Source: Escherichia coli O157:H7
GTDB taxonomy: Bacteria > Pseudomonadota > Gammaproteobacteria > Enterobacterales > Enterobacteriaceae
Length of the DNA: 64,000 bases
Reading direction: 5' to 3' (one strand)
Assembly (NCBI RefSeq): GCF_013167455.1
Contig: NZ_CP038328.1
This document shows positions 44,234 through 64,000 of this stretch, in pieces. The number at the start of each line of letters is the position of its first letter. Position 1 is the first letter of the stretch. Both the position numbers and the translations under genes were made by a program. The notes beneath the pieces are model-generated. The model was not told the DNA's origin. It worked only from the letters and a program-made list of their open reading frames with translations, and searched no databases.

Positions 44234-44647
44234 TCATCCCAAAACTGCCGTACCCAGCCGACAAGTGCAGCAACGCCGCCCCTGTTCATCGAAAACGACG
44301 ATTTCCCAGCTCTGATTTTGCCGCCCAAGATGCAGCGGCTGGCAGACGCCGCGTACCTTGCCTTCAGACACCGGGCGATGATGTGTGGCGTTAAGTTCCG
44401 TGCCCACCACACACTGCCCGTCGCGGGTCATCATAAATCCGGCCATCGATCCCAGCGTTTCAGCCAGCGCCGCCGACGCGCCGCCATGCAGCAGGCCAAA
44501 CGGCTGATGAGTACGGATATCAACCGGCATTTCGGCTTCCAGCACATCATCGCCCAGACGGGTATACACAATTCCCAGATGCGCCACCATTGTGTTATCG
44601 CTGGTGGCGTTCAGTTCGTCGAGCGTTAAATGGCGTTTCCAGATCAT
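44234..44647 (-). CDS. entH: proofreading hotdog-fold thioesterase of enterobactin synthesis
   Basis: 137 aa ORF directly downstream of entA, recognised as EntH/YbdB. Confidence 0.92.
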
Positions 44648-44649
44648 GC

Positions 44650-45396
44650 TTATGCCCCCAGCGTTGAGCCGCCATCGACCACAATATCCTGTAGGGTGAT
44701 ATGGCTGGCGAGGTCAGAGGCGAGGAACAAAATCGTGTTGGCGATCTCTTGTGGACGGGCGATTTTCCCCAGCGGAATGCCGAGTTTAAACTGCTCGCCA
44801 AAGCCGCGAATACGCTGTTCTTCGGCGTCATCGCTCACCCACAGCGTGCGTTGCATATCGGTATCGGTGGAACCCGGCGAAACCACATTACAGCGCACGC
44901 CGCTACCCGCCAGTTCCAGCCCGACGCTCAACGCCAGGCTTTTCAGCGCCGCTTTCGATGCGCCATAAGCACTCATACCAATACGCGGCGTGTGTGCGGC
45001 GTCGGACGCCACAGTGACAATCGCCCCGCCCCGCTGACGGCGAAACTGGTTCATGGTTTGCTGGAACAGGTTAAACGCACCGCCGACATTAACCGCAAAA
45101 GTCTGCTGCCAGTCCTCCTTACTGAGCTGATCGGTCGCGCCCATGCGCAAAATTCCCGCCGCATTGACCAGCACGTCCAGTCGCTCCGTTTCAGCTAACA
45201 GTCGCTGACATACCTGCGCCACCTGCGCAGCATCGGCAACATCCATTACTTCGGTCGCAAAGGGATATTGCTCCTGAGCGAACGCTTGATCAAAACCTGT
45301 AACTTTCGCTCCCGCTTCAACAAACGCCAGCGCCGTGGCGTAGCCGATACCTTTCCCCGCGCCGGTTACCCAGACATTTTTACCGCTGAAATCCAT
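44650..45396 (-). CDS. entA: 2,3-dihydro-2,3-dihydroxybenzoate dehydrogenase (SDR)
   Basis: 248 aa from ATG overlapping entB stop ([19 protein letters not shown]); Rossmann TGAGKGIG and YxxxK (YGASKAAL). Confidence 0.95.
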
Positions 45397-46253
45397 TATT
45401 TCACCTCGCGGGAGAGTAGCTTCCACCAGGCGTCGATGGTCGGGTTTTTCGCCAACATGACAAAGTCGATATCGCCATGCACTTTGCGCCAGCGCGCCGC
45501 CAGCGCCATCATGCGCACCGAATCCAGACCGTAGTCGATCAGGTTGTCGTCATCGAACGGTTCATCGGACTCGTCCAGCAACGGCAGGATCACCTCACGC
45601 AGCGCCGCTTTGCTGGCGGGGATAGGTGCTGGCAGTAATTCTTCGGTCATCACCACCCGGCCAGAACGTCCGGCCACATATTTCAGCGACATCAAATGCT
45701 CGTCACGGCTGAAATCGGCCAGCGCATCCGCCACCATAAACGGTTTAATATCGCGCATAAATGCGTCGGTTGCGGTGGTCATACAGCCAATGTGGGCATA
45801 TACCCCGGTAATAATCAGCTGGTTACGTCCACTCTCTTTGAGCATTTGCTCCAGCGGAGAACGATGAAACGCGCTGTAGCGCCACTTCACCAGCACCGTG
45901 TCGTCGGCATCTGGCGTCAGTCGATCCACCACCTTTTGCTGTTCCGGCGAACGGGTCAGGCCCGGCCCCCACATATCATTCAACAGCGCCCGATCTTCAT
46001 CGCTCTGCTCTTTCGGCTGGGCGGTGTAATAAACCGGGATATTGTGCTGTTTGCAGTAGTCGCGCAGCGCAGCAATATTCGCGATCACCTGCTCCATCAT
46101 CGGGCAGTTCTCGCCCCAGAAGCTGACAAAATAGTCCTGCATATCATGGATTAACAACGCGGCACGTTGCGGTTCAAAGGCCCAGTCAACTTTATTCTGC
46201 GGAATATCGTGAGACTCCGGCAGTGCGTAAGCCTGTAATTTTGGAATAGCCAT
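45396..46253 (-). CDS. entB: isochorismatase / aryl carrier protein
   Basis: 285 aa ORF; N-terminal isochorismatase domain and C-terminal carrier domain with phosphopantetheinylation Ser (GLDSVRMMAL). Confidence 0.96.
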   Translation of the reverse strand: MAIPKLQAYALPESHDIPQNKVDWAFEPQRAALLIHDMQDYFVSFWGENCPMMEQVIANIAALRDYCKQHNIPVYYTAQPKEQSDEDRALLNDMWGPGLTRSPEQQKVVDRLTPDADDTVLVKWRYSAFHRSPLEQMLKESGRNQLIITGVYAHIGCMTTATDAFMRDIKPFMVADALADFSRDEHLMSLKYVAGRSGRVVMTEELLPAPIPASKAALREVILPLLDESDEPFDDDNLIDYGLDSVRMMALAARWRKVHGDIDFVMLAKNPTIDAWWKLLSREVK

Positions 46254-46266
46254 CGTGTTCTCTCCT

Positions 46267-63507: not shown

Positions 63508-63545
63508 TGCTAACGTCAGATTGTTGACAAAGTGCGCGTCGTTCA

Positions 63546-63645
63546 TGCCGGATGCGGCGTGAACGCCTTATCCGGCCTACAAAAATCTTGCCAATTCAAT
63601 ATATTGCAGGACCATGTAGGCCTGATAAGCGTAGCGCATCAGGCA
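63546..63645. repeat. pair of inverted REP elements (BIME-like) downstream of fepA
   Basis: tgccggatgcggcgtgaacgccttatccggcctac and inverted copy gtaggcctgataagcgtagcgcatcaggca about 35 nt apart. Confidence 0.85.
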
Positions 63646-63681
63646 GTTTTGCGTTTGTCATCAGTCTCGAATATGGTCGAT

Positions 63682-64000
63682 ATGAAAACTACGCATACCT
63701 CCCTCCCCTTTGCCGGACATACGCTGCATTTTGTTGAGTTCGATCCGGCGAATTTTTGTGAGCAGGATTTACTCTGGCTGCCGCACTACGCACAACTGCA
63801 ACACGCTGGACGTAAACGTAAAACAGAGCATTTAGCCGGACGGATCGCTGCTGTTTATGCCTTGCGGGAATATGGCTATAAATGTGTGCCCGCAATCGGC
63901 GAGCTACGCCAACCGGTGTGGCCTGCGGAGGTATACGGCAGTATTAGCCACTGCGGGGCTACGGCATTGGCCGTGGTTTCCCGTCAACCGATTGGCGTTG
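63682..64000 (+). CDS. entD: phosphopantetheinyl transferase EntD, 5' portion (3' end outside window)
   Basis: Open frame from ATG at 63682 to window end (MKTTHTSLPFAGHTLHFVEFDPANF...); alternative in-frame ATG at 63673; not in the ORF track because no stop lies within the window. Confidence 0.85.
   Translation, partial: MKTTHTSLPFAGHTLHFVEFDPANFCEQDLLWLPHYAQLQHAGRKRKTEHLAGRIAAVYALREYGYKCVPAIGELRQPVWPAEVYGSISHCGATALAVVSRQPIGV

Follow-up and report, generated by a model that had tools for sequence, protein, structure and literature searches.

The distal part of a 64,000-nucleotide stretch of Escherichia coli O157:H7 DNA (contig NZ_CP038328.1, assembly GCF_013167455.1; the whole stretch is called the window below) holds, at positions 44234-63684, what is almost certainly the O157:H7 allele of the canonical enterobactin (enterochelin) locus on the E. 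coli chromosome. The ent/fep/fes locus is a textbook, previously known system, and a new siderophore or non-ribosomal peptide synthetase (NRPS) locus is excluded. An earlier note, made from the letters alone, had called this block a known enterobactin system with no new NRPS, and this holds on the annotation of a near-identical O157:H7 chromosome, on collinearity with E. coli K-12 and on matches to NCBIfam and Pfam protein family models. The region is also nearly universal in the species: in a megablast search with positions 44234-63684 as query against 5,426 complete E. coli genomes, it was present at a coverage of at least 80% in 5,411 of them, and the top matches were O157:H7 chromosomes with an identity that rounds to 100%.

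The alignment to reference enterobactin loci, which the earlier note had proposed as a check, was carried out in two ways: the 41.5-64 kb part of the window was aligned pairwise with the locus of K-12 MG1655, and the genes were compared one by one. The two loci are collinear at 97.7% identity and share gene order, orientations, lengths and overlaps throughout the K-12 series b0583-b0597 (entD-fepA-fes-ybdZ-entF-fepE-fepCGD-entS-fepB-entCEBAH). Per gene, the identity to K-12 is 95.9-99.3% at the nucleotide level and 93-100% at the amino acid (aa) level; in YbdZ, 5 of the 72 residues differ. An IS186 element that K-12 carries beyond entD falls in an area outside the window. Gene names and coordinates were transferred with a constant offset from the annotated O157:H7 record FORC_044 (NZ_CP016755.1), which is near-identical and differs from the window within the cluster at one place, a single-nucleotide polymorphism (SNP) at a synonymous position, 61566, in fepA.

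The names were tested against NCBIfam profiles with their curated cut-offs and, where NCBIfam gave none, against Pfam cut-offs. Twelve of the 15 complete proteins exceed the NCBIfam equivalog cut-off for their specific function, as does the fragment of EntD at the edge of the window; FepA lies above a subfamily cut-off, and EntB and YbdZ are supported by Pfam. Of what defines the cluster, the sequence has the genes for biosynthesis of 2,3-dihydroxybenzoate (DHB), for assembly, for export and uptake and for the esterase, in the synteny and orientation of K-12; of entD it has a part.

The pathway would begin with EntC, EntB and EntA, which would convert chorismate to DHB. The isochorismate synthase EntC (47887-49062, minus strand, 391 aa) scores 864 bits with NF011591 against a cut-off of 624 and is 100% identical to the K-12 protein, as is EntB (45396-46253, minus strand, 285 aa), which joins an isochorismatase to an aryl carrier protein (Pfam Isochorismatase 142 bits, PP-binding 31.6 bits) and for which the profile search found no NCBIfam equivalog at or above its cut-off. 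The 2,3-dihydro-2,3-dihydroxybenzoate dehydrogenase EntA (44650-45396, minus strand, 248 aa) scores 443 bits with NF006074 against a cut-off of 312. The DHB-serine trilactone would then be built by EntE, the aryl carrier domain of EntB, and EntF. EntE (46267-47877, minus strand, 536 aa) is the 2,3-dihydroxybenzoate-AMP ligase (NF008192, 1032 bits, cut-off 783), and EntF (55723-59604, minus strand, 1293 aa) is the serine-activating NRPS, with condensation, adenylation, peptidyl carrier and thioesterase domains in that order (NF007605, 2798 bits, cut-off 2400). EntD would prime the carrier domains, the MbtH-like protein YbdZ (59601-59819, minus strand, 72 aa; Pfam MbtH 75.9 bits) would assist EntF, and EntH would proofread; the last of these, also called YbdB, is a hotdog thioesterase (44234-44647, minus strand, 137 aa) with 314 bits for NF007607 against a cut-off of 237 and 99.3% aa identity to K-12.

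The finished siderophore would leave the cell through EntS, an exporter of the major facilitator superfamily (50211-51461, minus strand, 416 aa; NF007792, 715 bits, cut-off 324). The ferric complex would return through FepA, FepB and FepDGC, and hydrolysis by Fes would free the iron. FepA (61267-63507, plus strand, 746 aa) is the TonB-dependent ferric enterobactin receptor (NF010048, 1280 bits, cut-off 493) and FepB (49251-50207, plus strand, 318 aa, with a GTG start) the periplasmic binding protein (NF008200, 518 bits, cut-off 205). The ATP-binding cassette transporter consists of the permeases FepD (51572-52576, plus strand, 334 aa; NF007760, 628 bits, cut-off 428) and FepG (52573-53565, plus strand, 330 aa; NF007759, 647 bits, cut-off 422) and the ATPase FepC (53562-54377, plus strand, 271 aa; NF007606, 610 bits, cut-off 497). 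The ferric enterobactin esterase Fes (59822-61024, minus strand, 400 aa) has the Pfam domains Enterochelin_N and Esterase and scores 708 bits with NF007758 against a cut-off of 222. Transcription units would diverge from three spacers, entCEBAH from fepB, entS from fepDGC, and fes-ybdZ-entF from fepA-entD, and in each spacer Fe2+-Fur bound to operators that overlap the promoters would repress them when iron is sufficient. The biochemical roles, the operon structure and the Fur repression are those that work in K-12 would predict for this strain.

One gene inside the cluster stands apart. The earlier note had spoken of the expected ent/fep/fes genes as one set, which needs correcting for fepE: its product (54374-55507, minus strand, 377 aa) matches NF007699 with 624 bits against a cut-off of 300 and is a Wzz-family O-antigen chain-length regulator, wzz(fepE), with a role outside enterobactin.

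The same note had described the cluster as complete and uninterrupted. This is right for the 15 genes from entH to fepA (44234-63507), each of which has its K-12 length and not one internal stop, and it does not extend to entD, of which the window, ending at 64000, contains 106 of 206 codons. The phosphopantetheinyl transferase gene begins ATGAAAACTACG at 63682 on the plus strand, and a range that closes at 63684 takes in its start codon only; codons 1-106, up to the window end, score 238 bits with NF007604 against a cut-off of 169 and align to positions 4-109 of the 209 in that profile. In a near-identical public O157 genome entD is intact. The tight overlaps that had been pointed out were confirmed gene by gene: entB and entA overlap by 1 nt (TAATG), and ybdZ/entF, fepD/fepG and fepG/fepC by 4 nt each (ATGA). 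The convergent fepE and fepC also overlap, by 4 nt at their 3' ends.

The one point that the earlier note had left open was the start of fes, for which it named a GTG and an internal ATG. Both codons are there, the GTG at 61024-61022 (400 aa) and the ATG at 60946 (374 aa, from Met27), and the choice between them can be made, since annotation, the Shigella and Salmonella structures and comparative DNA evidence all favour the longer form. Fes is very probably the 400-aa product that begins at GTG 61024. The K-12 annotation (NP_415117.2) and that of the Prokaryotic Genome Annotation Pipeline both give 400 aa, as does FORC_044. Solved structures of Fes at 98% identity exist. For PDB entries 2B20 and 3C87 from Shigella flexneri and 3MGA from Salmonella, the alignment to the long form begins at residue 1-3, so that the N-terminal extension is part of it (E-values of 6e-282 for 2B20 and 9e-206 for 3MGA). 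Shigella Fes has a few substitutions relative to the protein in the window, and Salmonella Fes begins with an ATG that lies one codon before the position of the GTG. The NCBIfam equivalog profile likewise aligns from residue 2 of the long form, whose predicted N-terminal peptide is TALKVGSESWWQSK (or the formyl-Met/Val form).

For the comparative evidence, one genome per species was scanned for DNA encoding VTFWWRDPQG, which located 31 fes loci in Escherichia, Citrobacter, Salmonella, Mangrovibacter, Entomohabitans, Siccibacter and Buttiauxella. In all but two of them the upstream frame is open, with an in-frame start 28-32 codons before that peptide; the exceptions are E. albertii, where the contig ends, and C. 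koseri, which is frameshifted. Across 27 species genomes, the 26 additional codons show conservation together with wobble at the third position. Over fes codons 7-26 the mean pairwise divergence is 0.18, 0.15 and 0.37 at codon positions 1, 2 and 3, and this excess at the third position is the signature of a translated sequence. The extension contains the conserved peptide GSE(A/S)WWQSKxGPEW, and in the three most distant genera it has received a 9-nt insertion that keeps the frame. Apart from these comparisons, we observed that in C. koseri NCTC10786 a 1-nt insertion in a run of G (CCTGGGTGG) breaks the fes frame within the N-terminal extension; it may be a homopolymer error of the assembly or mark a fes pseudogene or an alternative start in that strain.

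The signals for initiation point the same way. A Shine-Dalgarno (SD)-like GGGGU lies at 61035-61031, 7 nt before the GTG, and relatives have GAGGU, AGGGU or AAGGU there (RRGGU). The duplex predicted to form with the anti-SD sequence has -5.4 kcal/mol before the GTG, a value in the top 8% for positions along the gene, and +0.4 kcal/mol, i.e. no pairing, before the internal ATG.

Two other readings of the fes start have to be weighed against the 400-aa product. In the first, both starts are used and E. coli specifically makes two Fes isoforms of 400 and 374 aa. Alternative internal starts in frame have been documented across the E. coli genome (bioRxiv 10.1101/520783), and E. coli and its closest Escherichia relatives have kept the ATG: 5 of the 31 have it, with the window counted in, and those named besides the window are one E. 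coli, E. whittamii and Escherichia sp. E1V33. Since the ATG lacks an SD and is not conserved even within Escherichia, and since chance can be expected to yield a Met codon at a position that is not conserved, we consider two isoforms very improbable. The second reading, by which Fes starts at ATG 60946 alone, as in the original K-12 annotation, and the 78 nt upstream are a 5' leader, is a shade less probable still. It has in its favour that ATG is the commoner start codon, that the Pfam domain Enterochelin_N begins right after Met27, and that the codon is kept in E. coli and three close Escherichia relatives. The Met is missing, however, from E. albertii, Escherichia sp. MOD1-EC7003, all Citrobacter and Salmonella, and every other genus found (DEMFEVTFWW in E. 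coli corresponds to DGNYRVTFWW in Salmonella), and a leader does not sit well with 26 open codons that show a third-position excess of divergence, conserved Trp residues and three-codon insertions that preserve the frame, nor with structures solved from the long form, a protein profile that runs from residue 2 or the missing SD-like pairing before the ATG.

With the 400-aa form adopted, the DNA just before its GTG shows a difference between genera. In Citrobacter the start region reads ...GGGGTTATGGCNGTGACG..., with an ATG and the GTG both in frame; in Escherichia it reads ...GGGGTTATGG-TGTGACG..., one base fewer, and the ATG (61029-61027) is thrown out of frame. This Escherichia-specific 1-nt deletion relative to Citrobacter has thus opened a three-codon mini open reading frame (mini-ORF), AUG-GUG-UGA at 61029-61021 on the minus strand, whose stop overlaps the fes GTG at 61024-61022. 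In C. sedlakii the ATG is lost (AAG) and the GTG is kept, which suggests that the GTG is the conserved start in use even in Citrobacter.

The earlier note had also reported Fur-box-like repeats in each of the three divergent promoter regions. This was borne out: matches above the chance level occur in all three spacers and coincide with regions footprinted in K-12. Scans used the 19-mer Fur consensus GATAATGATAATCATTATC, and the chance level was taken from shuffles for the scan at up to 3 mismatches and from Markov simulations for those at up to 4 mismatches and for hexamer triplets. At up to 3 mismatches the whole 64 kb has a single site, 51541-51559, which falls in the entS-fepD spacer; shuffles gave 0.00. 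At up to 4 there are four (49092, 49207, 51535 and 51541) against a simulated mean of 0.1, an enrichment of about 40-fold, and all four fall in the entC-fepB and entS-fepD spacers. Triplets of GATAAT-type hexamers number six in the window against 0.1 simulated, and the top match, GATAAT-ATTATT-GATAAC with 2 mismatches, lies at 61077-61094 in the fes-fepA spacer.

DNase I footprints of Fur in K-12 were published for fepA-fes, fepB, entC and fepD-entS (Chen et al. 2007; PMC2189734, Table 3). Those of fepA-fes, entC and fepD-entS map to the window with zero substitutions, at 61069-61116, 49068-49116 and 51522-51590, respectively. For this mapping we assumed an offset of +777 between K-12 genome versions, and the sole check on it is that the mapped footprints land on Fur-box sequences. 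The entC operator has its Fur-box core at 49092-49110 (4 mismatches to the 19-mer) and is base-identical to the K-12 footprint; in the fepD-entS operator two boxes overlap, 51535-51553 with 4 mismatches and 51541-51559 with 3, the latter being the best 19-mer fit in the window. The fepB Fur box (49199-49225, core 49207-49225, 4 mismatches) is kept, and the distal 7-8 bp of the footprint differ, where the K-12 footprint enters a 186-bp insertion found in K-12 only. In the fes-fepA operator (61069-61116) the hexamer array at 61077-61094 lies over the -10 hexamer of fepA and, back to back with it, a putative one of fes. The three Fur operators are shared with K-12, and two of the spacers, including entS-fepD, are free of any SNP. 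The fes-fepA operator, AATACGCTATTGCAAATGCAAATAGTTATCAATAATATTATCAATATATTTC, is nearly invariant in Escherichia, Citrobacter, Salmonella, Siccibacter and Buttiauxella in an alignment of 31 sequences (30 species genomes and the window), and in that alignment its conservation reads as a clear phylogenetic footprint. Within the fepD-entS region, we also noted two near in-frame ATGs for fepD, at 51560 (338 aa) and at 51572 (334 aa, annotated); the latter has GGAAG upstream, both are within the Fur-footprinted region, and ATG 51560 adjoins the Fur box.

Promoter elements probably overlap these operators. The -10 hexamer of fepA, reported as TATTAT (PMC10301672), sits at 61082-61087 within the fes-fepA operator, and that of fepB, TATAAT at 49201-49206, within the fepB Fur box. 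For fes, a plausible promoter can be proposed on the opposite strand, TTGCAA, 17 nt and TAATAT (-10 at 61086-61081), back to back over the fepA -10; this would place the fes transcription start close to 61074, with the GTG about 50 nt further downstream. Generic consensus scans of 44001-64000 stayed at shuffle level both for sigma-70 promoters (12 against 14.3) and for terminators (25 against 23.2), and apart from a hairpin after entF they contributed nothing further. Just beyond the fes-fepA Fur operator, in the presumed fepA leader, there is a small GC hairpin, CGCGC-N8-GCGCG at 61121-61138, that is conserved in Escherichia, Citrobacter, Salmonella and Siccibacter. The putative fepA leader as a whole (61094-61270) has a folding z of -0.45, i.e. 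structure no better than that of shuffles.

The only indel of the cluster relative to K-12 concerns the leader of fepB, in which 186 bp are present in K-12 and absent here (junction about 49220). In K-12 the segment separates the Fur box of fepB from its SD, at about 17030-17216 of the K-12 locus sequence; it is GC-rich and palindromic, with a single long predicted hairpin of -91 kcal/mol, and is a dispersed repeat found at a median of 6 places per genome. It resembles the GC-rich 'Box C'-type intergenic repeats of E. coli and may belong with them. The long leader occurs in 2,755 of the 5,426 complete E. coli genomes and the remainder have the short form seen in the window, a ratio of about 50:50. 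The difference is common standing variation and not a defect. The short O157 leader is about 35 nt long, and the -10 hexamer before it is the consensus TATAAT, whereas K-12 has TACAAT. A literature search on the structure of the fepB leader found nothing useful. Elsewhere in the window, a partial copy of the K-12 repeat (83% over 69 nt) is present at 41832-41900, beside a repetitive extragenic palindromic (REP) sequence in the ybdD-cstA spacer.

That this strain has a decayed or non-functional locus, as loss of entD or altered control of fepB might cause, is the least probable of the alternatives: entD is not whole within the window and 186 bp of the K-12 fepB leader are absent, but the complete genes at 93-100% aa identity to K-12 have no frameshifts or stops, entD is whole in a near-identical genome, and the short leader, found in about half of the 5,426 genomes, keeps the Fur box, the -10 hexamer and the SD.

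Some points do count against the identification of the canonical locus or against parts of it. As entD is partial in the window, the completeness of the cluster leans on near-identical public genomes. The fes-fepA operator is only a 6-mismatch fit to the 19-mer and can be recognised solely as a hexamer array, and studies of fepB regulation used the K-12 leader, from which the one here differs. For Fes, the Pfam model Enterochelin_N starts at residue 29, so that domain models alone are neutral on the extension; a literature search for N-terminal proteomic or initiation-profiling evidence on the protein found none, and fes is not listed in the N-terminomics supplements of PMC13245402. Expression, Fur footprints, and enterobactin production and uptake in this strain are extrapolated from K-12.

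Other elements of the cluster are likewise shared with K-12, among them the hairpin after entF and a REP element in the fepA-entD spacer. The hairpin (55673-55709, minus strand), with a stem of 15 bp and then a T-rich tail, lies 14 nt past the entF stop. It is probably the intrinsic terminator of fes-ybdZ-entF: the surrounding fepE-entF spacer (55508-55722) has 15 SNPs in 215 bp relative to K-12, about 7% against 2.3% overall, and the stem is conserved in K-12 despite this divergence. The fepA-entD spacer contains, at 63546-63650, a REP, an AT-rich spacer and an inverted REP, and it is because of this element that the BLAST search returned many extra places, tens per genome. An exact 38-nt copy of the REP lies at 41799-41836. 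The centre of the element (63582-63623) gives a marginal Rfam match to the small RNA family ES036/CssrF (40.5 bits, gathering score 37.6) and contains ATTCAATATATTG, which resembles a site for integration host factor.

Outside the cluster, FORC_044 and the window differ by two 1-nt indels, which lie in the ybdD-cstA spacer and in ybeF, respectively. Near 41930, in non-coding DNA, the window has a 1-nt deletion relative to both K-12 and FORC_044. In ybeF (12683-13636) the window has an intact ORF of 317 codons and the FORC_044 annotation a frameshifted pseudogene; either the strains differ here or one of the two records contains a sequencing error. Rfam also recognised the rnk leader (29942-30050, 125 bits) and a cspA-type thermoregulator in the 5' untranslated region upstream of cspE (16513-16955, 123 bits), both expected as normal for this chromosomal region.

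The result is chiefly negative, in that a large NRPS-containing block turns out to be textbook enterobactin and makes no case for a new siderophore or NRPS locus. Two modest natural variants, the repeat in the fepB leader and the ancestral ATG that is now out of frame at the start of fes, are perhaps of interest for iron regulation in E. coli across lineages. We speculate, at a rather low probability, that the fes mini-ORF and the two-form fepB leader are lineage-specific features that tune the expression of the textbook system. If this is true, initiation of Fes in E. coli could depend on, or be damped by, the overlapping mini-ORF, and the two forms of the fepB leader could lead to a lineage-dependent level of FepB or a lineage-dependent responsiveness to iron.

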